64,000 bases of DNA from Nautiliaceae bacterium (GTDB lineage: Bacteria; Campylobacterota; Campylobacteria; Campylobacterales; Nautiliaceae). A program made the position numbers and the translations under genes. Under the pieces are notes generated by a model that did no database searches, was not told where the DNA came from, and worked only from the letters and a program-made list of their open reading frames with translations. The DNA lies in contig JALVAK010000008.1 of NCBI GenBank assembly GCA_027011225.1, positions 18,312-82,311 on the forward strand, written 5' to 3'. Below are positions 26,400 to 47,940 of this stretch, piece after piece; the first letter of the stretch is position 1, and the number at the start of each line of letters is the position of its first letter.

Positions 26400-26430
26400 T
26401 CATCAAATTTTGTATATCAAAAGGAGCGGT

Positions 26431-28901: not shown

Positions 28902-31900
28902 TGGAGCAATTAAAAAAATTAAGAGAGCTTATTAAGCAGAAAAAAGAGCAGTTAGAAAAGCTTAAAAATTCTGCTTGTGATATTGAAGAGCTTAAAAAGC
29001 TTGAAATTGAAATTCGTATGTTAGAAGATGAGCTTGCAAAAAAAGAAAAAGAGTTTGAAAAGCTAAAACAAGAAATTAAACAAAAAGAAGAAGAATTAGA
29101 AGAAGTTGAAGAAGAGTTAAAGTTAAATATTGCAGGTAAACTTGCAAGAGCTTTTTTAAATAACCCTTTAACTCCAGTTTTGGCTATTGTAATTTTGTTA
29201 ATGGGTATAGTTGCTGTACTTTTTACTCCAAGAGAAGAAAATCCTCAAATTGATGTACCAGCAGCTAATGTAATAGTTATGTATCCAGGTGCTAGCTCTA
29301 AAGAGGTGCAAAATATAGTAGTAGAGCCTCTTGCAAGAGAGCTAAAGGCTATGACTGGCGTTAAGCATATTTATGGTATGGCAATGAATAGTGTAGGAAT
29401 TGTAACTGTTAGATTTAAAATTGGTGAAGATAAAGTTAGAAGTATGTCTAAACTTTATGATAGAGTTATGCAAAATATGGATAAAATGCCAAAAGGTGTA
29501 ATGCCTCCACTTGTTAAGCCTATTGATATAGATGAAGTACCAATAGTAACACTTGCACTCTCTAGTAAAAAATATAATGACTATCAGCTTTATAGAATTG
29601 CTCAAAGAATGTTAAGCCCTTTAGCAGAAGTAAAAAATGTAAGTATTGTAGGTATCAAAGGAGGGCATAAAAGGCAATTTAATATAATTGTTGACCCTCA
29701 AAAACTTGCAGCTTATCATTTGTCTTTAGGGCAAATTGCAATGGCGCTTAAAGGCGCTAATGTTGATTATCCACTAGGTGGAACTGAGAATAAAAAATAC
29801 TCAATTCCAGTGGAATTTGATGGATTTATCAAATCAGTTAAAGATGTGGAAAATTTAATAGTTGCAAACTATATGGGAAGACCTATTTATGTAAAAGATA
29901 TTGCAAAAGTTGAAGATGGTATAGATTTTCAGCACAAACATGAAACTTACTTTGAAGGTGGTAGAGCATTTTATACAGACCCTCTTGTAGATGGAAAAGA
30001 AGTTAAAAAATTTCCTGTAGGAGAGAAACTAAATCAAGTTACGATTTTTATCGGTAAAAAAAGAGGAAGTAATGCTGTATTTGTAGCAGAAGCGGTACTT
30101 AAAAAAGCAGAGGAGCTTAAAAAACTTTTACCAAAAGATGTTCATATTTATGTAACAAGAAATGATGGTGAAAAAGCAAATCATGCAGTAAATGAGCTTA
30201 TTTATCACTTATTTATCTCTCTTGGAATTATTGTAATTTTACTTATTGTAATGCTTGGATGGAGAGAGGCTTTAATTGTTGCATTTACTGTGCCACTTAT
30301 TTTATCTATTACGCTATTTATTGGAATGCTTGCAGGTCAAACAATTAATAGAATTACGTTATTTGCACTTATTTTATCTCTTGGATTATTAGTAGATAGT
30401 GCTATTATTGTTATTGAAAATATCCATAGACATTTTGAAATTGGAGACAAACCAAAAGAATATGCTGCTATTTATGCAACAAATGAGATAGGAAATCCTA
30501 CAAATATTGCAACACTTGCTATTATTTTAGCGTTTTTACCAATGTTTTTTGTAAGCGGTATGATGGGTCCATATATGAGACCAATTCCGTTTAATGTCCC
30601 AGTTGCAATGATTGCTTCACTTTTTGTAGCATACGTATTTACACCATGGGCAGCGGTTAGATTTTTACCAGAGCATAAGGATAAAAAAGAGCCATTTGAT
30701 ATTAGAAAAACTAAAATTTACAAAATTTTTTATAAAATATTAAATCCGCTTTTAACATCAACTACTAAAAGAGTTGTATTTTTTAGTGTAATTATTTTAG
30801 CTTTGATTGTAAGTTTAGCGCTTCCTGTATTTAAAATAGTGCTTTTTAAAATGCTTCCAAGTGCAAACAAAAATACATTTAATATAACAATTGATTTGCC
30901 AAAAGGAACAAGTATTAATGTAACTAAAAAGGTAAGTGATTGTGTAGCAAGTATTTTAGAAAAAGAGCCTGAAATTCATGATTTTGAGCAATTTATTGGA
31001 ATTAGTGGAGTAGTTGATTTTAATGGACTTCTTAGAGGCTCTTCTATGAAGCAGGGTGAAAACTATGGAGAAATTAGAGTAAATCTTTATCCAAAAGAAA
31101 AAGGAAGAAAAGAAAGCTCTATTCATATGGTAAGTAGGCTAAGACCTATTATTCAAGGTAAGTGCTCATTTAATGATGCAAATATTAAACTTGTAGAAGA
31201 CCCTCCAGGACCACCGGTAATTGCAACTCTTTTAATGCAAGTATTTGGCGGAGATGAAAAAGGTAGACTTAAACTTGCAAATTATATAGCAGATATATAC
31301 CATAAAACAAAAGGTGTTGTTGATATTGATATTATGAGAGATAAACAAATTGTAAAATATAAAATTATTCCAGATAAAGAAAAAGCAGCGCTTTTTGGTA
31401 TTACAACAGAACAAATTGCTAAAGTGCTTGGAGCTGGAATTAGAGGAGCAGTTGTTAGTGTAGCACACATTCCAAGCGAAAAAGAGCAAGTTGGAATTTT
31501 TGTAAGATTTGATAAAAATGCAAGAGATTCAATTGAAGCTCTTGATAAAATCAAAATTATGTCTATGACAACTCATAAATTAATACCACTTAAAGAAGTA
31601 GTTAAAATTGTAGCAGTGCCATTTGATGGAATGATTACAAGCAAAGATTTAAGAGAAATGGTAATGGTTACTGGTGAAATGGATAATAGAGGTAGCTTAT
31701 ATGCGCTACTTGATATATTTAACTATTTAAGAGAAAAAGGAATTCCTGGATATAAAATAATTTATGATGGAAATCCTAGATTAAATCTAAAAGCAATTGA
31801 AGAAAAAACAGGCAAAGAGTATGATTTAATCTGGGGAGGAGAGTGGGAGCTTACATTTGATGTATTTAGAGACCTTGGAGCTGCATTTGCAGTTGCAGTA

Positions 31901-32413
31901 ATTTTAATTTATTTACTAATGGTAGCTTATTATAAAAACTTTAGAGTACCAAGAATTGTTCTTGCAGCAGTGCCTCTTACATTTATAGGAGTGCTTCCAG
32001 GACATGCATTGATGAATTGGATTACGGAGATATTTTTAGATTCAAAAACATACTTTACTGCTACAAGTATGATAGGATTTATTGCGCTTGCAGGTATTGT
32101 TGTTAGAAACTCTTTACTTTTAATTGACTTTACAAATGATTTACTGAAAAAAGGAAGAAGTATAAATGAGGCAATTATTGAAGCAGCTGCTACTAGATTT
32201 AGACCAATTATCTTAACAGCTCTTGCAATTATTTTTGCATCATTTGTAATTGTATTAGACCCGGTATGGCAAGGGCTTGCAGTATCGTTAATTTTTGGGG
32301 TTCTTGCATCAACTTTATTATCACTTGTGGTAGTGCCAGTTCTTTACTGGAGATACTTAATTTCTAAACATAAAAAAGAAAAACATATTAAATATGGAGT
32401 TAAAGAGATTTAA
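28901..32413 (+). CDS. RND efflux permease with about 75-aa N-terminal coiled-coil extension
   Basis: 12-TM/2-loop RND layout and GLLVDSAIIVIENIHRH motif. 1170 aa. ATG overlaps the MFP stop by 1 nt (TAATG). Confidence 0.9.
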   Translation: MEQLKKLRELIKQKKEQLEKLKNSACDIEELKKLEIEIRMLEDELAKKEKEFEKLKQEIKQKEEELEEVEEELKLNIAGKLARAFLNNPLTPVLAIVILLMGIVAVLFTPREENPQIDVPAANVIVMYPGASSKEVQNIVVEPLARELKAMTGVKHIYGMAMNSVGIVTVRFKIGEDKVRSMSKLYDRVMQNMDKMPKGVMPPLVKPIDIDEVPIVTLALSSKKYNDYQLYRIAQRMLSPLAEVKNVSIVGIKGGHKRQFNIIVDPQKLAAYHLSLGQIAMALKGANVDYPLGGTENKKYSIPVEFDGFIKSVKDVENLIVANYMGRPIYVKDIAKVEDGIDFQHKHETYFEGGRAFYTDPLVDGKEVKKFPVGEKLNQVTIFIGKKRGSNAVFVAEAVLKKAEELKKLLPKDVHIYVTRNDGEKANHAVNELIYHLFISLGIIVILLIVMLGWREALIVAFTVPLILSITLFIGMLAGQTINRITLFALILSLGLLVDSAIIVIENIHRHFEIGDKPKEYAAIYATNEIGNPTNIATLAIILAFLPMFFVSGMMGPYMRPIPFNVPVAMIASLFVAYVFTPWAAVRFLPEHKDKKEPFDIRKTKIYKIFYKILNPLLTSTTKRVVFFSVIILALIVSLALPVFKIVLFKMLPSANKNTFNITIDLPKGTSINVTKKVSDCVASILEKEPEIHDFEQFIGISGVVDFNGLLRGSSMKQGENYGEIRVNLYPKEKGRKESSIHMVSRLRPIIQGKCSFNDANIKLVEDPPGPPVIATLLMQVFGGDEKGRLKLANYIADIYHKTKGVVDIDIMRDKQIVKYKIIPDKEKAALFGITTEQIAKVLGAGIRGAVVSVAHIPSEKEQVGIFVRFDKNARDSIEALDKIKIMSMTTHKLIPLKEVVKIVAVPFDGMITSKDLREMVMVTGEMDNRGSLYALLDIFNYLREKGIPGYKIIYDGNPRLNLKAIEEKTGKEYDLIWGGEWELTFDVFRDLGAAFAVAVILIYLLMVAYYKNFRVPRIVLAAVPLTFIGVLPGHALMNWITEIFLDSKTYFTATSMIGFIALAGIVVRNSLLLIDFTNDLLKKGRSINEAIIEAAATRFRPIILTALAIIFASFVIVLDPVWQGLAVSLIFGVLASTLLSLVVVPVLYWRYLISKHKKEKHIKYGVKEI

Positions 32414-32443: not shown

Positions 32444-34501
32444 TTGATTAGTCTAAAAAAAGAGTTTTTTAAAACTTCTTTGCTTGGTTTAACAATAGGA
32501 GCTGTTGTAATAGGAATATTGTATTTATTTATTACTAAAGTAGTAATTGAAAATGAGCTTAAAAAAGCTAGGCTTGAAGCAAAAACTATTATTGCTTATA
32601 GACATTATCTTGCATTAGTTTCTCCAAAAGTAAAAGTTGTTGATACTAATTTATCTCCTTTTGCAATAACTCCTGCTTTTACTACTAATCAAGTAGCTAA
32701 GATTTTAAGAGATGAGGGTGTTTATATAAAACAAACATCTGATAGATATAGAAATATTTTAGATAAACCAAACGAATCTGAGCTTGAGGCAATAAATTTT
32801 TTTAAAACTCATAAAGATAAAGAAGAATTTTTTCAAATTCATAATGCTGATAAAAATTTTAAAGAGAAGCATCTATTTTATGCAAGAAAACTTGTAATTG
32901 AAAAATCTTGTCTTAAATGTCATGGAATTCCGGGAAAAGATGTACCTTTAATTCTTTATAAAGAGCTTACAAAATATTATGGAAATAAAGCTTTTAATTA
33001 TCATCTAGGGGATGTTAGAGGAATTATTTCTATAGTATTTCCTTATGAAAAAATTTTAAAAAATATAGATAAAATTTTCTTGATTGTTATAGGGATTGGG
33101 GTTTTGTTTTTTTTAGTAGGTCTTTTTATATTTTATAAGTTAAATATGAATATTAATAAAGACATTTCAAAAGTTCTAAATCATTTCAAACTAACTCAAA
33201 AAGGCAAATATCCTATCTTTAAAGAAAAGCTTAAATTTTTAGAGTTTGCAAATTTAAAAGATGAAATTAATAAAACATTTTTAAGACTTAGGAGATATGA
33301 AGGTGAATTATATAAAGAGTTATATTTTAATAATTTAACTCTCCTTCCAAATAGAAATAAGTTTTTGGATTTAATAAAAGATAAAAAGTATGTAATTGCT
33401 CTTTTAAATATCGATAAATTTAAGGATATAAATTTTTATTTTGGAGTAGATATTGCTAATAAATTAATATTAGAAGTTTCAAAAAGATTAAAAAATTTAA
33501 AAAAGAAATATAATTTTAAATTATTTCATATAAATATTGATGAATTTGCTTTATTATTTAATAATATAGATGAAAATACTCTAAGAGAAGAGATAAAAGA
33601 AATTTTAAAAGAGCTAGAAAAACCATATAACATAGATGGAAATGAAATAATCATAAGATTTAGAGCTGGAATTAGTTTTAAGAAAAAAGATTATATAAGA
33701 GCTAATATAGCTCTTGATATGGCAAAAGAATTAAAAAAAGATATTTTATTTGGCAAAGAAATAGAAGGTTTAGGAAAATATAAAGAGCATCTGCAATGGC
33801 TTAGAAAATTAAAATGGGCACTTGAAAATGATAGAATTATTCCTTTTTATCAGCCAATAGTAGATGCTAATGGCAAAATGGTAAAATATGAAGCATTAGT
33901 TAGGCTTATTGATGAAAATGGTAGAGTTGTTAGTCCTTTTTTCTTTTTAGATGTAGCTAAAAAATCTAGAATGTATTTAGAAATAACAAAAAGAGTTATA
34001 GATAAAGCTATTGAAAAAATAAAAGAAAAAAATGTAGCAATTTCTATTAACTTAACTTTAGAAGATATTAATGATGAAGATATGAGGAAATTTATATTTG
34101 AAAAAATATCTTCTATTAAGGATAAAACTCTTTTAACTTTTGAGATAGTTGAGAGTGAAGATGTTGGAGAAAATAAAAAAGTTAAAGAATTTTTAAGAAA
34201 AATTAAAAGTTTAGGCTCTTTAATTTATATTGATGATTTTGGAAGCGGGTATTCTAATTTTGATTATTTGATTAAGTTAAATCCAGATGGGGTTAAAATA
34301 GATGGAAGTATTATAAAAAATATTTTAACTGATAAAAATAATGAGATAATAACAAAGACAATTATTTCTTTTGCAAAAGAGATGAATATAAAAACAATAG
34401 CAGAATATGTGGAAAATAAAGAGATTTTTGATAAGTTAAAAAATTTAGGAGTTGATTATTTCCAAGGATATTATTTCTCAGCTCCAAAAGAAGATATTTA
34501 A
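32444..34501 (+). CDS. Membrane c-di-GMP phosphodiesterase: periplasmic DUF3365 heme-c sensor + degenerate GGDEF + EAL
   Basis: TM1, a periplasmic domain with CxxCH (CLKCHG) and GDVRGIISIVFP (DUF3365), then TM2. GGDEF-fold with NIDEF in place of GGDEF. Intact EAL set (EALVRL, DDFGSGYSN, KIDGS, EYVE, QGYY). TTG start. Confidence 0.8.
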   Translation: MISLKKEFFKTSLLGLTIGAVVIGILYLFITKVVIENELKKARLEAKTIIAYRHYLALVSPKVKVVDTNLSPFAITPAFTTNQVAKILRDEGVYIKQTSDRYRNILDKPNESELEAINFFKTHKDKEEFFQIHNADKNFKEKHLFYARKLVIEKSCLKCHGIPGKDVPLILYKELTKYYGNKAFNYHLGDVRGIISIVFPYEKILKNIDKIFLIVIGIGVLFFLVGLFIFYKLNMNINKDISKVLNHFKLTQKGKYPIFKEKLKFLEFANLKDEINKTFLRLRRYEGELYKELYFNNLTLLPNRNKFLDLIKDKKYVIALLNIDKFKDINFYFGVDIANKLILEVSKRLKNLKKKYNFKLFHINIDEFALLFNNIDENTLREEIKEILKELEKPYNIDGNEIIIRFRAGISFKKKDYIRANIALDMAKELKKDILFGKEIEGLGKYKEHLQWLRKLKWALENDRIIPFYQPIVDANGKMVKYEALVRLIDENGRVVSPFFFLDVAKKSRMYLEITKRVIDKAIEKIKEKNVAISINLTLEDINDEDMRKFIFEKISSIKDKTLLTFEIVESEDVGENKKVKEFLRKIKSLGSLIYIDDFGSGYSNFDYLIKLNPDGVKIDGSIIKNILTDKNNEIITKTIISFAKEMNIKTIAEYVENKEIFDKLKNLGVDYFQGYYFSAPKEDI

Positions 34502-34510
34502 GGAGAAAAA

Positions 34511-35092
34511 ATGAAAATAGTTGTAGCTAGTGGCAACAAAGGTAAAATAAAAGAAATACAAAGTATTTTAAAAGATTATGAAATCATACCTTATACAGAA
34601 TTGATTGCTCCTATTGAAATAGAAGAAAATGGAAGCAGTTTTAAGGAAAATGCTATTATTAAAGCAAAAGCAGTATATGAAAAATTACCTCAATATTTGG
34701 TTATTGCAGATGATAGTGGTATTAGTGTTCCAGCTTTAAATAATGAGCCAGGTATTTTTTCTGCACGATATGCTGGTATTAACGCTAGTGATAAAGACAA
34801 TTTAAATAAACTTATTAATGAGCTAAAAAAAAGAAATATAAAAAAAACACCTGCTTTTTATACCGCTGCTATTGCTATAGCATCACCTTATGGTGTTTTT
34901 ACAACACATGGATTTATGAGGGGAGAAGTTATTGATGAGGCAAGAGGGGATAAAGGTTTTGGTTATGACCCTATGTTTATTCCAAAAGGATTTGATAAAA
35001 CATTAGGTGAGCTTGATGAAGAAGTAAAACAAAAAATATCTCATAGAGTAAAAGCTTTAGAGTTAGCAAAAAAGATTATAAAAGTTTTATAA
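34511..35092 (+). CDS. rdgB: Non-canonical purine NTP pyrophosphatase RdgB/HAM1
   Basis: [33 protein letters not shown] and GFGYDPMF motifs. Confidence 0.9.
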
Positions 35093-36901
35093 TCTTTTAT
35101 ATTTTATAAAAATTACTATAGTTGTTTTAGGTGGTATTTTGTTTATTTGAACATCATAAAATCTTTTAAGTTTGTTTTGACTTACGATTTTAACATTGTA
35201 TTTATCTATCTCAGGAGTAAAGTTTATTATTTTAATAGTTGGAGTATATATTCTAAAAGTTAAATTTTTCACTTCTTGATTATTGTTATTGCTTATATTA
35301 AGTGTTATTATATTAGAGCTAGCAGAGTAATCGTATGAAATGTTTTGAGCTAATAATGCTTTTGTAGCAATATCTTTTCCTTTCATAGGGTAGAAATATT
35401 TATTTTGTAAATATTTAAAATATTTCTCTAATACAGAAATATTTGTTTTATAAGCGAGTAAATGCGTGTGTACGCTTAGAGTATATACTCCATTTAATGC
35501 AGTTACAAAATTGTTTTCTAAAATTATGTTATGAAATATTTGAGATTTATTAAAATCTGTATCAATTAAATATGTATAATCATCTGTACCATGTCTTGGG
35601 ATAGTAATAATTCCATATTTCTTTGTAAAAGGTAATAAAAAAGGTTTTGGTTTTTCCATTACATAAATGTATCCAGCTTCTTTAAGCATTTTTTCTATTC
35701 TATCATCTATTTCTTCTCTTGGTGGTCTAAAGCCATATATTTTTCTTCCAGTGATTTTTTCAAGTAATTTTTTTGAATAAATTATCTCTTGTTTTAATAC
35801 CTCAATAGGAGCTCCTAAAATTTTACTATGAGAATAGCTATGAGAGCCAATTTCACAATTTTTAAATTGAGCAATTGCTTTTGTAATATTTTCATATTTT
35901 TTTGCAAGTTTTGCTACGGCAAAAAGAGTAACATCTATATTATATTCATTTGCTAATTTAGCAAAATTATATCCATAAGGATATTTATATTCTGTATCTT
36001 CTGATATAAAAACTGCATTTGGTTTATCTAAAAAAGGATAAGAAGATATTGAGATTAAATTATTTGAATATGAAGCAATATTACTAAAGATTTTTTTGAA
36101 TTCTTTATCATTCATATCTAAAAATACATAAGCAGGGAATGAAAAATAAAACCATTTACCTTTTCCATAAAATCCATGCCATGCAATCCCATCATCATAT
36201 ATTGATAAATTATGATTTTGAATTTGAGGCGATGATGTTACAGACCAGTTTGTTAAGACAATATCTGGAATAAAATTAGAATGAAAAATTGGCAAAGAAT
36301 CATAAATTACCAAATCTTCTCTTGTAGGATTATCTGACATATTAAGAGGAGATATTCTTTTATGAATATAAAAAATTGCTTTATTTTTAGGAATTGCTTC
36401 TATTTTTTTCTTTAAATTTGTAATCTCTTCTATAGTTTTTGCGTTTAAAAAATGTTGATTTTCATCAAAGTATCCAAATCTAAAATTAAATACGAATGTC
36501 CCACCTTTTGCTAGAAAATTTTTTATTTCATTTTTTGCGAATGTAGATATAGCATATGTATCAGGCGATATTAAAATATCGTTTTTATTTAAAAATATTA
36601 AATCTTTTTCTGAAATTATTTTGTAATTAAAGCCATTTTGTTTAAGTCTTAAAGCCAATTTTACTATGTCGTTTTTATATTTTTGAGGATTTAAATTTTT
36701 CAGTTTTAAAATATTTAATGTATTATTAGATAATAATATTTTAAATGTCGGTCTTTCATTATTTAAATAAACGCTAAAATTAATATTTGGCATTAATTGA
36801 TAAATAACAAAACCACTTAAAATAGCCAATAAAAAAATAAATATAAAGACTAAAAGTGTCTTTAATTTATTCAAAAAATACATATTTACCACCAACCTCA
36901 T
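35087..36901 (-). CDS. Membrane-anchored polysaccharide deacetylase (NodB/CE4 domain flanked by extra domains)
   Basis: N-terminal TM helix. Central NodB motifs ([21 protein letters not shown]). 604 aa. Last gene of the EPS operon. Confidence 0.78.
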
Positions 36902-37049
36902 CTAATACATCTTTATAAATTAATTTTTTTGCTAATTTTGTTTTATGTTTTTCTCTTGCTTTATATAGGAAATACGCAATAATTCCAAAAACTAATGTAA
37001 TTATTGTAATAATTAATATAATAAGTGCTAGAAATGCTAATAAGTTCAT
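36867..37049 (-). CDS. Small single-TM membrane protein (PgaD/IcaD-like position)
   Basis: 60 aa with one hydrophobic helix followed by a basic tail. ATGA overlap with the GT2 stop. Confidence 0.45.
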   Translation of the reverse strand: MNLLAFLALIILIITIITLVFGIIAYFLYKAREKHKTKLAKKLIYKDVLDEVGGKYVFFE

Positions 37050-38341
37050 AATCTACCTTTCCTTTCTAATTTTCCCCATTCCATTTTTATACCAAACCAC
37101 TCTTCTATAGTAGAGAATATTTTAACTAAATTTATGAATTGTATAAAGAACAATCTATAAAATATTGCATAAAATACTATAGATAAACTTTCATTTGTAA
37201 TAAGTACACAATAAAGAGCACCTGCAACATCTAATATTGTAAATAAACTCCACCAATAAAAAATTAAAAGAGAAATTCCTGTAGTAATAGCTAAATATAG
37301 TATAAATACATTGACCCAAAAATCCATAAAAGGCCAAAATACTGCTTCAAATAGCATATACCACATAGTAAAAGATGCTGCCATATTATCTTTAAAATTC
37401 CATAAAAGTTTTTTATGTTTTCTTATTGCTTGAAGTATACCTCTTGTCCATCTATATCTTTGTTTGATTAAGTCAAATATATTTTCAGGGGCTTCTGTTT
37501 TTGCAATAGCTTCTGATTCAAAATCTATTTTATATCCATGAGCAATAAGTTTTAATGTAACATCACAATCTTCTGCAAATGTATCATCATCATAAAGTCC
37601 TACGTCATAAAGTGCTTTTTTTCTAAACATACCAATAGGACCTGGAATAATATTTACAAGTTTTAAAAATGCTTGACCATTTCTTACCATATTTAGCCCT
37701 TCAATATATTCAAGGGCTTGAAGTTTCGTGATAATATTATTTTGATTACTTACAAATACAGAGCCTGCAACAGCAGCTATTTCTGGGTCTTCAAAATATA
37801 CTGCCATTAATTCTACAGCATCTTTTTGCAATTTTGAATCTGCATCAACTACCATTATAAGCTCACCGCTAGCTCTTTTGATTCCATAATTAATAGCTTT
37901 TGCTTTTCCTTCATTTGACTTTTTATATAGTTTTACAAAAGGAAGATAAGTATATTTTTGTACTACTAAAGATGTATTATCAGTACTTCCATCATCTACA
38001 ACTATAAGTTCTATATTTTTATAAGTTTGATTTATAATAGATTGTATCGATTTTTCAATTACTTTTTCTTCATTATAAGCTGGGATTATTACAGATACTT
38101 TTTTGTTTGTAGTTTTTTTAGTCTCTTCGGTAGCTTTAATTGTTGTTTTTAATATAGAAAAAAATAACAACACCATATATCTTAATATCACAAGAGTAAT
38201 AAAAATTAGAATAATTCCAATGCCTACTTTTATAACTATATTATTAATAATATAAAAAGTATTGTAATACTCAATAAGCACAAACGACAATAATAAAATA
38301 AGTAATATTGATAGAGAAATTATAAAAAATGTTTTTACCAT
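37046..38341 (-). CDS. Family 2 glycosyltransferase, processive polysaccharide synthase type (PgaC/IcaA/NodC-like)
   Basis: 2 N-terminal and about 4 C-terminal TM helices. IIPAYNEE, VVDDGSTD, VVDADS (DxD), AED and QRYRWTRG (QxxRW) motifs. Confidence 0.85.
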   Translation of the reverse strand: MVKTFFIISLSILLILLLSFVLIEYYNTFYIINNIVIKVGIGIILIFITLVILRYMVLLFFSILKTTIKATEETKKTTNKKVSVIIPAYNEEKVIEKSIQSIINQTYKNIELIVVDDGSTDNTSLVVQKYTYLPFVKLYKKSNEGKAKAINYGIKRASGELIMVVDADSKLQKDAVELMAVYFEDPEIAAVAGSVFVSNQNNIITKLQALEYIEGLNMVRNGQAFLKLVNIIPGPIGMFRKKALYDVGLYDDDTFAEDCDVTLKLIAHGYKIDFESEAIAKTEAPENIFDLIKQRYRWTRGILQAIRKHKKLLWNFKDNMAASFTMWYMLFEAVFWPFMDFWVNVFILYLAITTGISLLIFYWWSLFTILDVAGALYCVLITNESLSIVFYAIFYRLFFIQFINLVKIFSTIEEWFGIKMEWGKLERKGRL

Positions 38342-41300
38342 AGTTTCTCCATATCTAAGCTACATTCGTAGCTTCTATAATTACTTGCAGTTTTAATAGG
38401 AGAAGTATTGCTATATTCGCATTTAGCATTAAATTCAAAATTTTTAATATTTTTATTTGCATTTATGCCTAGTTTATATAAAAAAGATTTATCCCATATG
38501 CTATAACCTATAGCGCCTTTTAGCATTAAGCTTATTAATTTATTATCCGGATAAAATTTTATTCCTATTAAATTAGCATCTGTTTTATCAGGAGAGTAAT
38601 AACATTTTGTTTGTTTTGTATTGAATTGATACCATCCAGAAAAATATATAGCGTATGGATTATTATAAAAGTAATTGCTATAAAAATCATAATCAATTTG
38701 AGGAGTTATTGCTATATTGCTATCATCTATATACTCTCCTGCAATTGAATACCATAATCCTTTAATTTTGTCTAATTGTATAAATCTGCTAGCTTCTAAT
38801 TTAGCCCTTTTATGATTTAAAGAGCATATAGTTTTTCTTGAATACACTAAATTTTCATAATTTATATTTATAGTATGATTTAAATATTTAGTTTTAAAAT
38901 CTACATAAGGATTGATTGTTTTTCCTGCATTATCTCTTCCTAAAATTATTTGAAATTTAGGAGTTTGATAAACTGCACCTATTATATTGCCTTTATCTTT
39001 TTTATTGTTATCATTTAATTTGTATATTCGAGAAAAAACGCCTATATAATTATCGTTAATATTTTTTAAAAGGCTTCCTTCGATATGGTTATAGTGTATT
39101 TTTTGATTGTCGTGAAAATGATAAAGAGATAAATTAAATTTATAAGAAGGGTTTTTGTTTATTGAGTTTATTGTTGTATTGTTTTGCTCTATGTAAGTTT
39201 TTTTTAGTTGGATTAAATCCAAGTTTTTTTGTATTTTAGTTAAGTTACTTTCTCTTTTTATATTTTTTTCTGCAAGTATTATTTTGTTATTTTTTTGATT
39301 AATGGCATCTTTTAAAGGAATAAAATCTTCTTTTTTATTTATTTGGCTTAAATTTTGTTTTATTAAAAATATTAGTGATTTTTCTGGGTTGTTTGGATTA
39401 TATTCTCCCGGATACCATTTTTCTTTTATGATTTTGCATTTTTCATTATCACATTTTATCCATAAAATTTTATAACCTTTATCTTTTTTAACAGTAGATG
39501 CATATACTTGATAAAACTTAACTTTGTATATATTTCCTTTTTTTTCTAATAAAATTGGGTCATAAATACCTACACTAATAAATCCTGCTTTTTTGAAGAT
39601 ATTTTGTTTTTTTAATCTCCAATATAAATTATCTCTTATTTTTTTATCATAAAATGATGCATATTTATCAAAATCCATACTCTCCCATGCTTTTTTCCAT
39701 TCGTTTAAGAAGTGTTTTATTTTTTCAGGAAGTGGTTTTGGAACTTCTTTTAATAGTTTTTCATAAATTTTTTTTGCTTCTTTTATTTTTCCTGATTTTT
39801 GAAGACAGTATGCATAATGATATTCTAAAATAGGGTCTTTTTTCTCCCATAATAAATTATAAAATTCACCGGCTGCTTGTTTGTATTTTCCATCAAATTC
39901 TAATGCATATGCATATTTTTCTCTTACTTTGCTATCTGTTGGTTTAATGAATAAATATTCTTTATAATATTCAATCGCTGTTGGATAAAATCCTGCAAAA
40001 TAGCTTCTATCTCCGTACACTAAGAGTTTTTGAGCTTTATTATTAAAATATTTTTCTATAACTGATTGATTTTCTGAATAGATAAATCTTGGATTTACTT
40101 TTAGTATTTTTGCTTTTAATTCAATGGCAGGTTTAAATTTTGGATATTTATTTAAGATTTTATTTAAAATATCTAATGCTTCTTTGTTAAATCCATTCCA
40201 ATAATATCTTTTTGCAAGCTCTAAATAAGCCTCAGGCGTGTTTTTTATAGCAGCATAATATTCCCAATATGAAAATCCTTTATAAAATTCTTTTAATTGA
40301 AGATAAATATCTCCTAAAGTTTTGTATAGCTCTATTTTATCAGGGTTATTTTTCAAATAAATTTCATAATATTTTGCTGCTTTAGCGTAATTTTTATCTG
40401 CATAATATAAGTCTGCTAGTTTTAACACATACTCCATATTGTTAGGATTATCTTTTACTAAAGAGAGATATTTTCTAATTAATGGTTTGATATTACCATT
40501 TAATATCATTAAAGCTTCTTTTACTTCATTATCATTAGGGTTTATTTTGTGAAGTTTTTTAAATATTTTTTTTGCTTCTTTTTTATGCCCTTGCCACATA
40601 TGAATAAAACCTATCATTTTTAAGGCTTCATATTTTTGTTTTTCATTTCCATTTTCATAAACATCACTTAAGAATATTAAAGCTTTTTTATAAAGCCCAT
40701 TCCATGCAAGGATTTTTCCATATAAGAGTTTAGCTTGATAATTATTAGAATTGATATACTTATCAAGTATTTGACTTGCTTTAGCTGTCTCTCCATTCCA
40801 TGTATAAAGTTTTGCTAAAAATATATTAGCTTGCATATCATCTGGGTGGGAATTAACATAATCTTGAGCAATTTTTATTGCTTCTTGAGGATTTAAGTCA
40901 TATAAAGCGATAACTAGCTTTTTGAGATTATCAAAATTAGGATTATTTTGGTAATTTTCTTTTAATAAATTTATATATTTGTAAATTTGTTTGTTAATTA
41001 GTTTTAGATAATGGTTATATTCTTTTTTTGATAATTTATATTTTAGCGAATAAAGTATTTTTTTAGCACTTAATGCATCACCTAATTGTATATAAGTTTG
41101 AATAAGTTTTATTCCATATTCTTTATTTCCTGTAGCATTGTATAATATCTTAAATAGTCTATTGGCTTTTATTATATTGCCTTTGTAGAAATAATCATAT
41201 GCTTTTATCTCTAAAACATCTAAATCTTTTGAGTTTAAGTTGCTTAATAATTTTAATGATAAGTCATATTTTCCTTCCCACATAGCTACTCTTGCTACTT

Positions 41301-41703
41301 TTATCAAAGTAGAAGGTTTTAAAATAGGATGATATTTTGTATAAAAGTCAATTATTTCTTTATATTTTTGCTCTTTGTATAATTTATTTATATAATTATC
41401 AATATCTCCATATTGCTCTTCTAATTGTTTATTTATCAAAAATTTATTTAATCTCTCTTTTAAAAGAAGCGCTTTTTTGTTTTTTGGCTCAATTTTTAAA
41501 ACTTCATTAATTAATTGTTGAGCTTTTGAGTAGTTTTTATTATCTAAATAATACTTTGCTAATACTAATCGATTTTTTATATCTAGTTTATTTTGTTGTA
41601 TTTTTTGTGTTAGCTCTTTTACATCTAAATCGATTGAAGAAGCAAATGATATAGCTATTAATGTAGGAAATAGTATAATTTTTTTTAGCATTTTCCATCC
41701 CAT
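38335..41703 (-). CDS. Outer-membrane exopolysaccharide export protein: TPR array + NTF2-like insert + C-terminal beta-barrel (PgaA/BcsC/PelB architecture)
   Basis: Signal peptide and about 650 aa of TPR-like repeats. WKKAWESMDFDKYASFYD...KVKFYQVYAS module. Last about 300 aa have alternating hydrophobic strands ending in an aromatic residue (...MEKLW). Confidence 0.62.
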   Translation of the reverse strand: MGWKMLKKIILFPTLIAISFASSIDLDVKELTQKIQQNKLDIKNRLVLAKYYLDNKNYSKAQQLINEVLKIEPKNKKALLLKERLNKFLINKQLEEQYGDIDNYINKLYKEQKYKEIIDFYTKYHPILKPSTLIKVARVAMWEGKYDLSLKLLSNLNSKDLDVLEIKAYDYFYKGNIIKANRLFKILYNATGNKEYGIKLIQTYIQLGDALSAKKILYSLKYKLSKKEYNHYLKLINKQIYKYINLLKENYQNNPNFDNLKKLVIALYDLNPQEAIKIAQDYVNSHPDDMQANIFLAKLYTWNGETAKASQILDKYINSNNYQAKLLYGKILAWNGLYKKALIFLSDVYENGNEKQKYEALKMIGFIHMWQGHKKEAKKIFKKLHKINPNDNEVKEALMILNGNIKPLIRKYLSLVKDNPNNMEYVLKLADLYYADKNYAKAAKYYEIYLKNNPDKIELYKTLGDIYLQLKEFYKGFSYWEYYAAIKNTPEAYLELAKRYYWNGFNKEALDILNKILNKYPKFKPAIELKAKILKVNPRFIYSENQSVIEKYFNNKAQKLLVYGDRSYFAGFYPTAIEYYKEYLFIKPTDSKVREKYAYALEFDGKYKQAAGEFYNLLWEKKDPILEYHYAYCLQKSGKIKEAKKIYEKLLKEVPKPLPEKIKHFLNEWKKAWESMDFDKYASFYDKKIRDNLYWRLKKQNIFKKAGFISVGIYDPILLEKKGNIYKVKFYQVYASTVKKDKGYKILWIKCDNEKCKIIKEKWYPGEYNPNNPEKSLIFLIKQNLSQINKKEDFIPLKDAINQKNNKIILAEKNIKRESNLTKIQKNLDLIQLKKTYIEQNNTTINSINKNPSYKFNLSLYHFHDNQKIHYNHIEGSLLKNINDNYIGVFSRIYKLNDNNKKDKGNIIGAVYQTPKFQIILGRDNAGKTINPYVDFKTKYLNHTININYENLVYSRKTICSLNHKRAKLEASRFIQLDKIKGLWYSIAGEYIDDSNIAITPQIDYDFYSNYFYNNPYAIYFSGWYQFNTKQTKCYYSPDKTDANLIGIKFYPDNKLISLMLKGAIGYSIWDKSFLYKLGINANKNIKNFEFNAKCEYSNTSPIKTASNYRSYECSLDMEKLW

Positions 41704-43034
41704 TCGATTACTTCTGTTAGTTTATACTCTGAGAGCTGTAATTTTTTTTCTAATCTTTTTTTAAACATCTCTTTTGTTACATCTATTAAGCATAATGATA
41801 ACATATTTGATTTTTCATCAATATATATAATATCATGATTTCTTAAACGTTTTATTATCTCTTTGTTGAATTTGTTAGTTTTGACGATTGAGAAATATAT
41901 TCTTTCATTAAATAGTATTGAGATAGATTTGCAAAAGTTTTCATAACTTGGAGCAAATTTTTGAGGAGGCAGAAGTTTTATTTTTGTTGAATAAAAGAAA
42001 TTGTTTGTTAATTTTTCTATAGTTAAAATATACTCTTCTAAATTAAAGTTTTTATCAAATACTTCATAGCATCTTGATTGGGTTGCATCTATTTTATCTT
42101 CTGCTCTTATATAATCTTTATTTGCAATAAATATAACTTCACTATTAGGTGAAGTTTGTTTTACAAGAGAGCATATGTTAAAGTGAGGATTAGTATCAAT
42201 ATCTTTATATATTACAACATCTGGATTATGCTCTAATTTGTTTATTAATTCATTTAAGTTAGAAGCAAATTCAATTTCAAAATATTCTCCAAAAATATAT
42301 TTATTTAAAAGTTTAAATCTTTTATCTTCTGTTATAACTAATATTTTTCTTTTTATTTTATTATTATTGCGATTTGTATCGTTGCAATTATTTATACTCT
42401 CTTGTGAATTTTGAGTTGCTGGAATTAGCATAAGTTGTTTATTGTAGATAAAAAAGTAAGAAGTATGTGTTACAGGATATAAAGAGTGTTTTACATTAAT
42501 TTTACGTTTGTTATTGTCTTTTTGCATTAAAAGAGATATGTCTGTATAGTTTTCTAAAAAGCTGGTAATAAAATGTTTTACATTAGATGTAATAAATACT
42601 TGTTTACCGTGTTTTGTTACAGCAATTTCAATAAATTTTTCTAGAAAAATTCTTGCTAAGTCATATTCACCTTCTACAAACATTAATCCTGGTCTATGAA
42701 GTATTACAGCATCACAATTTGTCTCTTGTATGATTCTGTCTATATCTTCATAAATAAAATCAAATCCATAAGCAGATTTGATATCTATCCAGTCTTCTTT
42801 TAAACAAAGTAACTCTGAATTGTCTATTAATCTATTTATATTTGGGTCGTTTAAATTTTTGATTGCACTTAATCTTTTAATCATTAATTTTTTAGGAATA
42901 GATGAGATTATAGTTATTTTTTCGATTTTTTCGTTTTGTGCGTATGCGTATAGTGCAAATGTAAGCTTTCCTAATTTACTATCTCCTTCAATTAAGGAAA
43001 CATCTGCTTTTTTTATTATATCAATGAGTTCCAT
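41685..43034 (-). CDS. Three-domain regulator: degenerate P-loop (RecA/KaiC-like) + REC-like + degenerate GGDEF-like with RxxD
   Basis: GDSKLGKL (Walker-A-like with no S/T). ILVITED...DVVIYKDID...VIFIANKD...FDKNF (receiver-like). LLPPQKF...RNHDIIYIDEKSNMLSLCL (GGDEF fold, motif lost). Good RBS AAGGGGA. 14-nt overlap with the HK gene. Confidence 0.5.
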   Translation of the reverse strand: MELIDIIKKADVSLIEGDSKLGKLTFALYAYAQNEKIEKITIISSIPKKLMIKRLSAIKNLNDPNINRLIDNSELLCLKEDWIDIKSAYGFDFIYEDIDRIIQETNCDAVILHRPGLMFVEGEYDLARIFLEKFIEIAVTKHGKQVFITSNVKHFITSFLENYTDISLLMQKDNNKRKINVKHSLYPVTHTSYFFIYNKQLMLIPATQNSQESINNCNDTNRNNNKIKRKILVITEDKRFKLLNKYIFGEYFEIEFASNLNELINKLEHNPDVVIYKDIDTNPHFNICSLVKQTSPNSEVIFIANKDYIRAEDKIDATQSRCYEVFDKNFNLEEYILTIEKLTNNFFYSTKIKLLPPQKFAPSYENFCKSISILFNERIYFSIVKTNKFNKEIIKRLRNHDIIYIDEKSNMLSLCLIDVTKEMFKKRLEKKLQLSEYKLTEVIEWDGKC

Positions 43035-44826: not shown

Positions 44827-44880
44827 CGCCTCCCCTTTTTATAAAAATCTAGACGAATATTTTAATCTATAAAAATGACA

Positions 44881-45510
44881 TTAAGATGACGTAAGTTTAT
44901 ATCCTAAATATCTTTTTGATTCAATTAAATCTTTTCCTATTTTTTTTCTAAGTCTCTTTACAAGAGCTGCAAGTGTATTTGGTAAGATTGGCTCATTCCA
45001 GACTTTATTTTCTATCTCTTTAAAAGATACATATGAGTCTTTTTTTTCAATTAGTAATTCCAAAAATTTAGCTTCTTTTGCGCTTAATTCAATCGTTTTT
45101 CCATCTACAATTAAAGATTTTTGTGCAGGAGAGTAATAAATATTATCGCTTAATTTTATATTTCTTTTTTTGGTAAATCTGTTGATTCTAATTAATAATT
45201 CTTCAAATTCAAATGGTTTTTTTAAAAAATCTACAGCTCCAAGCTCAAACGATTTTTTTATATTTTCAATATGTCCCATTCCAGAAATTACTATTAGTAA
45301 TGAGTTTTCTATTAATTTTGGACGTTTGCTAATTTCGTTTAATAAGTTCCCATCTGGTAGATTTATATCTCCAATTATTACATCAAAATGAGTATCATTT
45401 GTTAAAAATTCTTTAATAGATTTGAAGCTTTTTACTTCATATTCGGTTGATAATAGCTCAGTTAATGTATCTCTTATTAAGTTTTCATCTTCAATGATAG
45501 CAATTTTCAA
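44881..45510 (-). CDS. OmpR-family response regulator (REC + winged helix)
   Basis: MKIAIIEDE, VIIGDINLPDG (phospho-Asp) and KKPFEFEEL. C-terminal trans_reg_C-like LSAKEAKFLELL...YLGYKL. Confidence 0.9.
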   Translation of the reverse strand: MKIAIIEDENLIRDTLTELLSTEYEVKSFKSIKEFLTNDTHFDVIIGDINLPDGNLLNEISKRPKLIENSLLIVISGMGHIENIKKSFELGAVDFLKKPFEFEELLIRINRFTKKRNIKLSDNIYYSPAQKSLIVDGKTIELSAKEAKFLELLIEKKDSYVSFKEIENKVWNEPILPNTLAALVKRLRKKIGKDLIESKRYLGYKLTSS

Positions 45511-45531: not shown

Positions 45532-46191
45532 TTATAATAAAATTTTACTAGAGATGGCACATGCTGCGCTTTCACTTCTTAGTATAAAACCTTTTAATTT
45601 TACTTTATTTTTAAAAAATTTTCTTTCTCTTTTGCTAAATCCTCCTTCTGCTCCTATTAAAAATGGCATATTATACTCTTTTTGGCATTGTATCTCTTCC
45701 CCATCAAAATCAACTGCTATAAAATCCTTATATTTTTCAAAAAATTCTTCTGAAGAGTTTATTATTTCTATTTGCATTAAATCGCTTCTGCCACATTGTT
45801 GGTTTGAATTGATTAAAATTTTTTTTATTCTATCAAGTTTTAGCTTGAAATTTTTTTGAGAAAAATCGCAATAAATAAAACTTATCTTACTAACTCCTAT
45901 CTCATTTAGAGTAGGTAGAGTTTTTTCTATGTTTTTTGGCTCAATTATACACCATCCAAGATGAAAAAATTTTTCAGGTTTATTTGGTTTTAGCTCTTTT
46001 TTATCTAAAGTTAAAATAGCTTCTTTTTTGTTAATAGATTGAATTTTGTAATAATACAAATAATCATCTTTTAAGTTTCTAATTTTTACTATTTCATCTT
46101 TTTTAACTCTTCTTACTTTAAAAAGATATTTATGCTCTTCTCCTGTTAAAGTAATAGTAGTATTTGTATCAGGATAATATAAAAACTGCAT
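45532..46191 (-). CDS. rsmE: 16S rRNA (uracil1498-N3)-methyltransferase RsmE
   Basis: EEHKYLFKVRRVK N-terminal PUA-like part and the C-terminal GAEGGFSKRE SPOUT motif. Confidence 0.85.
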   Translation of the reverse strand: MQFLYYPDTNTTITLTGEEHKYLFKVRRVKKDEIVKIRNLKDDYLYYYKIQSINKKEAILTLDKKELKPNKPEKFFHLGWCIIEPKNIEKTLPTLNEIGVSKISFIYCDFSQKNFKLKLDRIKKILINSNQQCGRSDLMQIEIINSSEEFFEKYKDFIAVDFDGEEIQCQKEYNMPFLIGAEGGFSKRERKFFKNKVKLKGFILRSESAACAISSKILL

Positions 46192-46233: not shown

Positions 46234-47940
46234 TTGATAAAAAATATAACAGACTTTTTGAAAAATCCTAAAAAAAGTAAGATTTACAAGTTTTTAAATG
46301 TTAGCGATGAAGAGATAAAAATCCTTCAATATCTGCTTGATAAATATTTAGAAGGAAAAGAAGATATAAATGTTAAAGAGATTATAAGTGAAATTTTTAA
46401 AGCAGATAAACTCTCAAGCCTTGAATATACTAAATTTATAAAACATTTAATTGATGAAGGATGGGTTGTAAATTCTTCTTTTAGTGTAAAAGTGCCTGAA
46501 ATTAGTATATTAGAGCTTTATAATTCTACAATTTCTCTATCAGTTTCGTTTTTGAAACTTTTAGAAAAAGGCTCTCTTGATTTAATGGTTTTAGATAAAA
46601 AGCCTTATGAAGATTATTTAGAATATCTTCAAGACCAGTTTTTAAGAGTAGAGATATATGAGCAACTAGCTTCTTTAAAAAACAACTATTCAAATGAATC
46701 TTCTTCTATTAAAAGACTTCAAAGCAAGCTTAAATTAATTGAAAATAATATTAAAGACAGAATTGAGCAAACTAAAATAGACTTACCAGTACTTAATTTT
46801 ATAAAAGAGTATGAATTAAATGAAAAAGAAGAGATTATTTTTTTAGCTTTGCTTAAAGAAGAGTATACCTCTTCAAATGAAAATAAAAGAGAGATGAATT
46901 ATCTTTTAAATTTAGTAAGCACAGATGAAATAGATAGAATTAAAAATAGAAGTCTTTTAGATGATAATGCAAAGCTTCTTAGTGAGGGTATTTTAGATTA
47001 TGATGAGATTTTTGGCTCGTTTGGAGGATATACAAAAATTTTTTTTATAAGAGAAGAGATTTTAAATGAATTAATTCATCCAAGGAAAAAACATAAAATA
47101 GAGCATATTATAAAAGATACAATTTTTGATTTGATTGATTCTAATAAAAGCTTAAAAGATGTGGTTTTGCCAAAGAGCACAAAAGATATGATAAATGCTT
47201 TGCTTAAACAAACTGATAAAAAAGTTATAAAAAGATTAAAAAGCTGGGGAATTAAAACAGATAATGATGTTAGTGCCAAGATTATATTTTATGGTCCCCC
47301 AGGTACTGGCAAAACATTAACTGCAATAGCAATTGCTAATGAGCTTAAAAAGCCTATATTAAGTCTTGATGCTAGTAAGATTTTGTCTATGTATGTAGGT
47401 GAGAGTGAAAAAAATGTAAGAAGAATATTTGATGAATATACAGAAATTTCAGAAAAATTAAAATTAAAACCTGTTTTGTTACTAAATGAAGCAGACCAGT
47501 TTCTCTCAACTAGAACTACTGCAAGTTTTTCTAGTGCAGATAAAATGCACAATCAGATGCAAAATATCTTTTTAGAGCAGCTTGAGAGATTTGATGGAGT
47601 ATTAATTGCTACTACTAATTTATTAGAGACTATAGATAATGCTTTTTCTAGAAGATTTGATAAAAAAATTAAATTTCAAAAGCCTTCTTTTAAGGATAGA
47701 GTTAAGTTATGGAAAATGAAACTTCCTAAAAACGCAGAATTTGAAGAAAAGTTTGATATAAAACAATTAGCAAAATATGAGCTAACTCCAGCACAAATTG
47801 AGCTTGTTATTAAAAATACTGCTTTGCAAGTTGCTATGAGAGATAATCCTGTTTTTAAGATGGAAGATTTTATAAATGAGATACAAAAAGAGATGCAAAA
47901 TGCGTTTGATAATGAAAAAGAAGTTGGTTTTAAATTATAG
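46234..47940 (+). CDS. AAA+ family ATPase with large uncharacterised N-terminal domain
   Basis: Single AAA module at the C-terminus: Walker A GPPGTGKT, Walker B LLLNEADQ, and an arginine-finger region NAFSRRFD. TTG start. Confidence 0.8.
   Translation: MIKNITDFLKNPKKSKIYKFLNVSDEEIKILQYLLDKYLEGKEDINVKEIISEIFKADKLSSLEYTKFIKHLIDEGWVVNSSFSVKVPEISILELYNSTISLSVSFLKLLEKGSLDLMVLDKKPYEDYLEYLQDQFLRVEIYEQLASLKNNYSNESSSIKRLQSKLKLIENNIKDRIEQTKIDLPVLNFIKEYELNEKEEIIFLALLKEEYTSSNENKREMNYLLNLVSTDEIDRIKNRSLLDDNAKLLSEGILDYDEIFGSFGGYTKIFFIREEILNELIHPRKKHKIEHIIKDTIFDLIDSNKSLKDVVLPKSTKDMINALLKQTDKKVIKRLKSWGIKTDNDVSAKIIFYGPPGTGKTLTAIAIANELKKPILSLDASKILSMYVGESEKNVRRIFDEYTEISEKLKLKPVLLLNEADQFLSTRTTASFSSADKMHNQMQNIFLEQLERFDGVLIATTNLLETIDNAFSRRFDKKIKFQKPSFKDRVKLWKMKLPKNAEFEEKFDIKQLAKYELTPAQIELVIKNTALQVAMRDNPVFKMEDFINEIQKEMQNAFDNEKEVGFKL

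Follow-up and report, generated by a model that had tools for sequence, protein, structure and literature searches.

A candidate BcsE-type c-di-GMP receptor encoded in an exopolysaccharide operon of a Nautiliaceae bacterium

The DNA analysed is a stretch of 64,000 nucleotides from a Nautiliaceae bacterium (GenBank assembly GCA_027011225.1, contig JALVAK010000008.1, positions 18,312 to 82,311 of the forward strand), referred to as the window. Its minus strand carries an operon for a synthase-dependent exopolysaccharide (EPS) system, in which genes for a response regulator, a histidine kinase, a 449-aa protein, a tetratricopeptide repeat (TPR) protein, a family 2 glycosyltransferase (GT2), a 60-aa peptide and a deacetylase follow one another in that order. 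The subject of this study is the 449-aa protein, for which an earlier note, made from the sequence alone, had proposed a role as a receptor for cyclic dimeric GMP (c-di-GMP). The domains of the protein, its relation to the BcsE protein of bacterial cellulose secretion and its genetic context are described below.

The 449-aa gene and its product

As the earlier note had described, the 449-aa open reading frame (ORF) overlaps both of its neighbours: it shares 14 nt with the kinase ORF, which ends at 43021, and 19 nt with the 1122-aa TPR ORF, the start of which is at 41703. The motifs quoted there were all recovered in the protein: GDSKLGKL(T) at aa 17–25 and AVILHRPG at aa 109–116 in the N-terminal part; ILVITED (231–237), DVVIYKDID (272–280), VIFIANKD (300–307) and FDKNF (326–330) in the receiver part; and LLPPQKF (354–360), RNHD (398–401) and EKSNM (407–411) in the last domain. 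The gene is real and conserved. Its 18 orthologues have 39–63% identity; only one of them comes with a source name, Lebetimonas natsushimae (Nautiliaceae), where it is recorded as a 'conserved hypothetical protein'. When 1.84 billion representatives were searched exhaustively with a profile, 178 matches were returned at E ≤ 1e-3. Of these, 79 cluster representatives lie below 1e-10 and are mostly full length (420–490 aa), and the weaker matches at the end of the list are ordinary receivers. Matches in a set of 5.8 billion proteins were all unnamed or hypothetical, and a search of genome contigs with a narrow alignment gave four loci. Conservation counts given below refer to an alignment of 82 family representatives, each of at least 380 aa, and Pfam counts to a scan of 71 family members. 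The gene and the features of its product are as follows.

41685..43034, minus strand: 449-aa ORF with an ATG start, coding for a BcsE-like tripartite protein (NTPase-like, degenerate receiver and degenerate GGDEF-like domains)
42420..43034, minus strand: RecA/KaiC-like N-terminal domain, aa 1–205, with nine predicted β-strands and matches to KaiC
42960..42986, minus strand: atypical P-loop GDSKLGKLT, aa 17–25, with the Walker A Lys present and Leu at the Ser/Thr position
42687..42698, minus strand: HRPG, aa 113–116, at the Walker B position, with His in place of the acidic residue
42000..42347, minus strand: degenerate receiver, aa 230–345, with a match to NtrC1 and a (βα)5 fold in the model
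42096..42107, minus strand: R310-A-E-D313, second RxxD motif, on the receiver, in register with BcsE I-site II (R306ATD)
41688..41999, minus strand: C-terminal α/β domain, aa 346–449, of the order α-β-(short α)-β-β-α-β, a minimal degenerate GGDEF-like core
41832..41843, minus strand: R398-N-H-D401, RxxD motif directly before strand β2, in register with BcsE I-site I (R415TGD)
41802..41816, minus strand: EKSNM, aa 407–411, hairpin at the GG(D/E)EF position, not conserved

An AlphaFold2 model of the full protein, computed with an orthologue alignment, has a predicted local distance difference test score (pLDDT) of 87.3 and a predicted template modelling score (pTM) of 0.83. It consists of an α/β domain (1–205), a disordered linker (208–226), a receiver fold (230–345) and a small domain (346–449). 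A three-domain architecture in the order known from BcsE is nearly certain, and the model bears out the earlier reading of a RecA/KaiC-like domain, a receiver and a small C-terminal domain with an RxxD motif. Scans of the 449-aa protein with Pfam and NCBIfam gave nothing significant except a weak match to an NtrC receiver. Among the 71 family members, KaiC (PF06745) was matched in nine (best 2.4e-5) and Response_reg in eight, and no other Pfam family was matched.

Comparison of the full model with the PDB by Foldseek returned a long list of KaiC chains with E values of ~1e-10. Together with the nine PF06745 matches, this assigns a RecA-type core fold to aa 1–205 and supports the N-terminal assignment made in the earlier note. 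The P-loop is atypical, as noted previously, and is invariant in 19 close orthologues. E16, G17, K20, G22, K23 and L24 are invariant in the close orthologues, while E80, which follows strand 2 at the position of the catalytic Glu of KaiC, is nearly so. In the wider family, G17, G22, K23 and L24 are kept in 58–60 of the 82 representatives; about a quarter of them have lost the P-loop, whereas almost all retain both RxxD motifs. At the Walker B position H113 is kept in 67 and R114 in 69 representatives, and position 116, Gly in the window protein, is Asp or Glu in 66. The sequences GDSKLGKL, with Leu, and VILH, with His, depart from the Walker A (GxxxxGK[ST]) and Walker B (hhhh[DE]) patterns, respectively. 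Judged by these residues, catalysis by the N-terminal domain is unlikely.

The second domain matched the receiver of Aquifex NtrC1 in the PDB sequence search, with E values of 3e-4 for the single sequence and 6e-6 for the profile; receivers were all that this search gave, whether the query was the protein itself or the full-length profile. These matches and the (βα)5 fold of aa 230–345 in the model support the receiver domain proposed earlier. The window protein has D237, D278, which aligns to the phospho-acceptor of NtrC1, and K328, and its β4 Ser/Thr position is occupied by A304. Among the family representatives, residue 278 is Pro in 19, Asp in 15, Ser in 10, Leu in 9 and another residue in the others, and position 304 is variable. 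A phosphorylatable receiver combines an acidic pocket, a phospho-acceptor, a β4 Ser/Thr and a β5 Lys; with A304, and with Asp278 in only 15 of 82 sequences, this combination is incomplete, and by its residue pattern the receiver is classed as degenerate at the family level. The domain also carries the motif R310-A-E-D313, of which the Arg is kept in 80 and the Asp in 78 of the 82 representatives. The earlier note had described a single RxxD, that of the last domain, and had missed this second one, which is almost as well conserved and aligns with I-site II of BcsE.

In the model, the C-terminal domain runs through helix 364–376, strand 381–386, a short helix 393–396, R398NHD401, strand 402–406, a turn at 407–410, strand 411–417, helix 421–432 and strand 437–441. 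This topology (β1, short α2, RxxD, β2, hairpin, β3, α3, β4) is that of the GGDEF/palm core. R398 is kept in all 82 representatives and D401 in 81, and these two residues, with R310 and D313, are the top conserved polar residues of the family; high conservation is seen as well for F347 and Y348, which lie in the interdomain helix. The whole window protein contains only three RxxD tetrapeptides. Given this number and the retention of R398 and D401, the motif is more than a chance tetrapeptide. The model and these counts uphold the earlier placement of an RxxD five residues before the hairpin at the GGDEF position.

The hairpin at 407–410, between strands 402–406 and 411–417, falls in EKSNM, the columns of which are variable and partly gapped in the alignment of the representatives. 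Because the hairpin sequence is variable, no cyclase activity is expected. An active GGDEF domain would have a GG(D/E)EF motif and a match to PF00990; the window protein has EKSNM in place of the former and lacks the latter. Neither Pfam and NCBIfam nor the PDB sequences yielded a match to the last domain. Folded alone with a 32-sequence alignment, residues 346–449 gave a pLDDT of 87.5. The best template modelling score (TM-score) in a Foldseek comparison of the domain alone was 0.52, for the c-di-GMP-bound GGDEF domain of GcbC (5euh_D; root-mean-square deviation (rmsd) 3.9 Å, 102 columns, E 0.57).

Comparison with BcsE

BcsE belongs to the type II cellulose secretion systems of E. coli and Salmonella and is represented in Pfam by PF10995, formerly the GIL domain. 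In it, a RecA/KaiC-like NTPase domain without catalytic competence is followed by a receiver that cannot be phosphorylated and by a severely degenerate GGDEF domain, from which the P-loop and helix α1 are missing (PMC7439463). It binds c-di-GMP through the RxxD I-site R415TGD, and the nearest structural relative of its degenerate GGDEF domain is that of PelD (PMC7439463). A second RxxD on the receiver, R306ATD, completes the site for an intercalated c-di-GMP dimer and has been validated experimentally (PMC7840130). The N-terminal domains of BcsE dimerise and are recruited to the membrane by the single-pass peptide BcsF through β-strand addition (PMC11470070).

The three top matches of the full model in the PDB by Foldseek were full-length chains of Escherichia coli BcsE (9fo7_E, 9fnn_E and 9fp0_E), with E values of 2.2e-14 to 1.3e-13 over ~490 aligned columns, ahead of KaiC. 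The TM-scores of these matches are low (~0.3) and the rmsd values high, as is to be expected when a single rigid superposition is applied to three domains joined by flexible links. Sequence identity to BcsE is ~13% in the Foldseek alignment and 14–17% in profile–profile alignments. The earlier note had described the fusion of a pseudo-ATPase, a receiver and a GGDEF-like domain as an architecture that it did not recognise. With BcsE as the top structural match, this architecture is one already published as the tripartite BcsE (PMC7439463, PMC7840130).

Alignment of the protein family with a single E. coli BcsE sequence by hhalign was not significant (E 0.39), yet it placed R310-A-E-D313 exactly on R306-A-T-D309. 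When the 71-sequence family profile was aligned with a profile of 21 enterobacterial BcsE sequences, the alignment was collinear over 334–342 columns (E 0.02–0.03) with both RxxD pairs in register, R398–D401 on R415–D418 and R310–D313 on R306–D309 of BcsE. The P value was 0.0037 for the tandem of receiver and C-terminal domain (146 columns), 0.006 for the receiver alone and 0.03 for the C-terminal domain alone; controls with reversed targets gave 0.12–0.33. The profile–profile signal is weak but consistent, and it is not proof of homology.

The operon and related loci

The other genes of the operon, and the GGDEF-EAL gene that lies beside it, are as follows.

44881..45510, minus strand: OmpR-type response regulator, first gene of the operon, with Pfam Response_reg and Trans_reg_C
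43021..~44826, minus strand: histidine kinase with H-box and HATPase_c, then a transmembrane helix and FecR-like and TPR parts (Pfam); the start codon is uncertain
38335..41703, minus strand: 1122-aa TPR protein with a signal peptide (matches to TPR families and Cds6_C in Pfam), presumably a scaffold in the periplasm and an exporter in the outer membrane
37046..38341, minus strand: membrane GT2, a processive synthase like PgaC/IcaA, without PilZ (Pfam GT2)
36867..37049, minus strand: 60-aa single-pass membrane peptide with a cytosolic tail that ends GGKYVFFE, candidate partner of the BcsF/PgaD type
35087..36901, minus strand: polysaccharide deacetylase of carbohydrate esterase family 4, last gene of the operon (Pfam PF01522; deacetylase matches in the PDB)
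32444..34501, plus strand: 685-aa protein with a Tll0287-like sensor (2e-27), GGDEF (1e-13) and EAL (3e-62) domains (Pfam)

The GT2 scored 196.7 bits against TIGR03937 (PgaC_IcaA), below the equivalog cutoff, and its PDB sequence matches are hyaluronan and cellulose synthases. The polymer is probably other than cellulose, made by a synthase like that for poly-N-acetylglucosamine (PNAG). The ORF of the 60-aa peptide overlaps both the GT2 and the deacetylase genes. Counterparts of the peptide in Lebetimonas and at a distant locus are 53–65% identical to it, against 20–43% for those of the 449-aa protein, and ORFs for such small peptides are also present in L002, L008 and L010 (loci in the numbering used here). 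The peptides share an invariant juxtamembrane motif, YF.YK.RE, and a conserved tail end, (G)xY[VI]FF[ED]. By analogy, the peptide could be a partner of the BcsF, PgaD or IcaD type.

The GGDEF-EAL gene is convergent with the operon, and a gene for a Ham1-type NTP pyrophosphatase (34511..35092) lies between them. The adjacent GGDEF-EAL protein might make or remove c-di-GMP locally. In the same positions and on the same strand as the GGDEF-EAL and Ham1-type genes, L002 has ORFs of 692 and 193 aa, which correspond to them by place and size. Nautiliaceae genomes have many GGDEF and EAL genes (PMC2628731).

Some peculiarities of the neighbouring genes may be recorded. In the kinase ORF, the first canonical start (TTG at 44523) comes only after the H-box, FLHDLKNKL; the only in-frame alternative after the stop codon at 44839–44841 is ATT at 44826, and the H-box is found upstream of the canonical start in one Nautiliaceae metagenome-assembled genome (MAG) as well. 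The domain order of the kinase is unusual, with the DHp-CA core (dimerisation/phosphotransfer and catalytic domains) first and the transmembrane helix, FecR-like and TPR parts behind it. In the 1122-aa protein the NTF2-like Cds6_C domain (aa 662–762) stands between the TPR region and a C-terminal part of ~360 aa that has no family match and is presumed to be a barrel; the best PDB sequence match of this protein is 7o21_A.

The gene order of the window operon is repeated in Lebetimonas natsushimae and in Nautiliaceae MAGs. Among seven complete contexts, five have the family gene beside genes for a TPR protein, a PgaC-like GT2, a membrane peptide of 55–75 aa and a deacetylase, with the TPR gene absent in one of the five. 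The family gene stands directly upstream of the cluster for GT2, small transmembrane peptide and deacetylase in the window and in L002, L006, L007, L008 and L010. A TPR exporter gene lies between the family gene and the GT2 gene in all these clusters but L008, where an unannotated gene for 484 aa takes that place. In two distant members (~20% identical) the module comprises the family gene, the TPR, GT2, 55–60-aa peptide and deacetylase genes and a gene of ~334 aa, with no kinase.

L008 (1..11845) is a hybrid cluster, in which genes for a GT2, a 75-aa peptide and a deacetylase are accompanied by BcsB-like (CBM_BcsB_1st), GH8 (BcsZ-like) and BcsC-like (BCSC_C) genes. This locus ties the family to cellulose-type machinery. 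A separate KaiC-family ATPase of 298 aa is encoded divergently upstream in L008.

One subfamily is found at three loci:

L009, 9001..10469: lone family gene
L011, 6110..7557: lone family gene
L004, 4741..5607: lone family gene coding for 288 aa, without the N-terminal domain

In two of the three, L009 and L011, the gene is followed by one for a membrane peptide of 38–41 aa (..LFVLFMIF..RGFMLQS..), which recalls the bcsE–bcsF pair.

Farther from the operon, the window contains a three-gene RND-type efflux operon (26410..32413, plus strand; OEP factor, HlyD-type adaptor and a 1170-aa AcrB-type pump) upstream of the GGDEF-EAL gene. On the other side, a gene for a 219-aa RNA methyltransferase (45532..46191; Pfam Methyltrans_RNA) lies upstream of the EPS operon and is divergent from one for a 568-aa AAA+ ATPase with a variant winged-helix domain (46234..47940, plus strand). 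From 48074 on there are ORFs that, as read from their sequences, are like NADH dehydrogenase genes of the nuoA/B/CD type.

Proposed function and comparison with known systems

The 449-aa protein is probably a cytosolic BcsE-type c-di-GMP receptor dedicated to the co-encoded synthase-dependent EPS system. The constituent claim that it binds c-di-GMP, based on the two conserved and aligned RxxD motifs, is likely; the output of ligand binding on the synthase is less certain than the binding. By analogy with BcsE, both RxxD sites would clamp an intercalated c-di-GMP dimer between the degenerate receiver and the GGDEF-like domain. The N-terminal domain would dimerise and bring the protein to the membrane, where the 60-aa peptide might hold it by its cytosolic tail in the manner of BcsF. 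The ligand-bound form would then stabilise or activate the PilZ-less GT2 synthase, and would do so directly because intermediaries of the BcsR/Q type are absent. The c-di-GMP would be supplied by enzymes such as the adjacent GGDEF-EAL protein, and the OmpR-type regulator and the kinase would act separately, on transcription. The general idea of the earlier note, a c-di-GMP receptor for the EPS machine, thus finds support; its choice of PelD as the model does not, as the closest system is BcsE and the protein has no transmembrane or GAF module.

Several results weigh against a BcsE-type receptor. Pfam GGDEF (PF00990) matched neither the window protein nor any of the 71 family members, and the PDB search with the profile of the C-terminal domain found no GGDEF, BcsE or PelD chain. 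Foldseek with this domain alone returned nothing from the PDB at E ≤ 1e-3, and Lrp/AsnC RAM, HMA and other ferredoxin-like folds scored like the GGDEF domain of GcbC. Pfam BcsE (PF10995) had no match at E ≤ 1 in the window protein or in any of the 71 members. The profile–profile P values are marginal (0.004–0.03), and the N-terminal domains of the family and of BcsE gave no significant alignment in hhalign. The P-loop Lys is kept, unlike in BcsE, and going by this residue the N-terminal domain may not be inert and might bind a nucleotide. The lone subfamily stands between a metallophosphoesterase gene and glyS with no EPS genes adjoining, and the window operon lacks the partners that define the Bcs system. 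The assignment of a GGDEF fold to the last ~100 aa, made in the earlier note, therefore stands only in part: the topology and the BcsE-like context favour it, and no Pfam, PDB sequence or significant Foldseek match by the domain itself does so. At the level of the domain, the label of a degenerate GGDEF, which rests on the modelled topology and on this context, is inconclusive.

Four other explanations were weighed. The protein might be a ligand-independent scaffold built of three fossil domains, in which the conserved Arg/Asp pairs form salt bridges or bind a partner. The last domain has no significant sequence-family match, its fold matches are generic when it is taken alone, and conservation by itself does not name a ligand, all of which would suit a scaffold. 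On that explanation, the RxxD spacing of both pairs and their register with the two validated sites of BcsE (PMC7840130) would be a coincidence; moreover, the GT2 has no other recognisable c-di-GMP module and a GGDEF-EAL gene is adjacent. A scaffold is thus rather unlikely, though less so than the remaining three. A phosphorylation-dependent regulator or adaptor would take a phosphoryl group from the translationally coupled kinase and signal to the synthase, with the RxxD motifs serving as protein contacts. It is suggested by the retention of D237, D278 and K328, by the overlap of the start with the kinase stop and by the same order of kinase and family gene in Lebetimonas and one Nautiliaceae MAG. 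Against it stand the scarcity of Asp at position 278, where Pro, Ser, Leu and others occur instead, and the Ala in place of the β4 Ser/Thr, which leave phosphorylation possible for the window protein and not as a family trait. The obvious partner of the kinase is the OmpR-type regulator directly upstream, and distant members occur in the same EPS cluster with no kinase nearby. Such an adaptor is improbable, and phosphotransfer from the adjacent kinase, which the earlier note had proposed to test, is unlikely as a property of the family, since few members have Asp278 and most lack a neighbouring kinase.

An active or nucleotide-binding KaiC/RecA-like NTPase, which would power or time assembly of the secretion system with C-terminal modules that are regulatory and unrelated to c-di-GMP, is given about the same low probability as the adaptor. 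The invariant residues of the P-loop region in close orthologues, with the nearly invariant E80, and the similarity to KaiC in structure and in Pfam speak for it, as does the separate KaiC-like ATPase beside the distant family member in L008. The Walker A Ser/Thr is replaced by Leu and the Walker B acidic residue by His, and the P-loop is lost in a good part of a family that keeps both RxxD motifs in almost all representatives. In addition, the nearest structural relative, the N-terminal domain of BcsE, is catalytically incompetent (PMC7439463). The receptor of the strict PelD type proposed in the earlier note, a degenerate GGDEF domain that switches on a Pel-like system through its I-site, would be suggested by the RxxD before a degenerate hairpin and is the least likely of all. 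The model has neither the transmembrane nor the GAF module of the PelD arrangement (transmembrane–GAF–degenerate GGDEF), no PelD chain is among the listed Foldseek or PDB sequence matches, and the synthase is a GT2 rather than a GT4 of the PelF type, with no other Pel genes present.

A further and decidedly tentative step would be to regard the family as an unrecognised sister lineage of BcsE. The receptor with two I-sites and degenerate NTPase, receiver and GGDEF domains would then be an ancient, portable module of GT2 synthase-dependent systems, not an add-on of enterobacterial cellulose secretion. The hybrid locus with its BcsB-, BcsZ- and BcsC-like genes would link both lineages. The family might keep a less decayed state, in view of the P-loop Lys and, in the window protein, the phospho-acceptor Asp; in that case the window protein could integrate nucleotide binding or phosphorylation with c-di-GMP.

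Sensing of c-di-GMP seems to differ from one synthase-dependent polysaccharide system to another and is effected by PilZ domains on BcsA and Alg44, by PelD or at the PgaC–PgaD interface. BcsE has so far been regarded as peculiar to the type II cellulose systems of enterobacteria. In the literature searched, no account of a BcsE-like protein was found for Nautiliaceae or for systems other than Bcs. The architecture itself is already known, and the value of the present case lies in the extension of the BcsE class beyond enterobacterial cellulose. If the reading of a BcsE-type receptor is true, this class of receptor extends to another polymer and to another phylum, the Campylobacterota of hydrothermal vents. 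It would also supply an annotation for a family of at least ~80 sequence clusters, now without a Pfam domain and at best named 'hypothetical protein', and a receptor candidate to go with the many c-di-GMP enzymes found in Nautiliaceae. The roles of the NTPase-like and degenerate receiver modules could then be studied in a simpler setting, one that has no BcsR/Q.

Among known systems, PelD of Pseudomonas aeruginosa is similar in that a degenerate GGDEF-type domain keeping only the RxxD I-site activates a synthase-dependent polysaccharide. It differs as a membrane protein with transmembrane helices and a GAF domain, with no NTPase-like or receiver domain, and its partners are the GT4 PelF and PelE/G. 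The 449-aa protein lacks the transmembrane helices and the GAF domain, and the window locus lacks these partners. The PNAG system of E. coli shares with the window a PilZ-less PgaC-like GT2, a small inner-membrane partner, a deacetylase and a TPR exporter in one operon. There, the dinucleotide is sensed at the PgaC–PgaD interface, with no separate soluble receptor (PMC8892547). The window system, unlike Pga, has a separate candidate receptor, its small protein is of 60 aa with one transmembrane helix, and its GT2 falls below the PgaC_IcaA cutoff. The KaiC/RecA ATPases have the fold of aa 1–205, and the Walker A Gly and Lys are kept in the window protein; however, this has a single such domain, not a double one, with Leu at the Ser/Thr and His at the Walker B Asp, and there is no hexamer-forming or clock context at the locus.

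BcsE is the closest known system of the 449-aa protein. As indicated by the model and the Foldseek match (2e-14), the two share the domain order of a degenerate NTPase-like domain, a degenerate receiver and a minimal GGDEF-like domain, and both I-sites appear to have their counterparts, by conservation and register, in R398/D401 and R310/D313. Both proteins are cytosolic and co-encoded with a synthase-dependent EPS system, with a small single-pass membrane peptide in the operon, as BcsF is for BcsE. The window protein is shorter (449 against 523 aa) and without the ~40-aa BcsQ-binding tail, keeps the GxxxxGK P-loop that BcsE has lost and, in the window copy, the receiver Asp. The operon is without BcsR, BcsQ, BcsG and a PilZ-bearing BcsA; it has a PgaC-like synthase and a deacetylase, in a host that belongs to the Campylobacterota (Nautiliaceae) and not to the Enterobacteriaceae. 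Hence, with PF10995 unmatched and the defining Bcs partners absent, the protein is not assigned to BcsE proper, and BcsE is the known protein to which its domain order, paired RxxD motifs and operon setting bring it closest.

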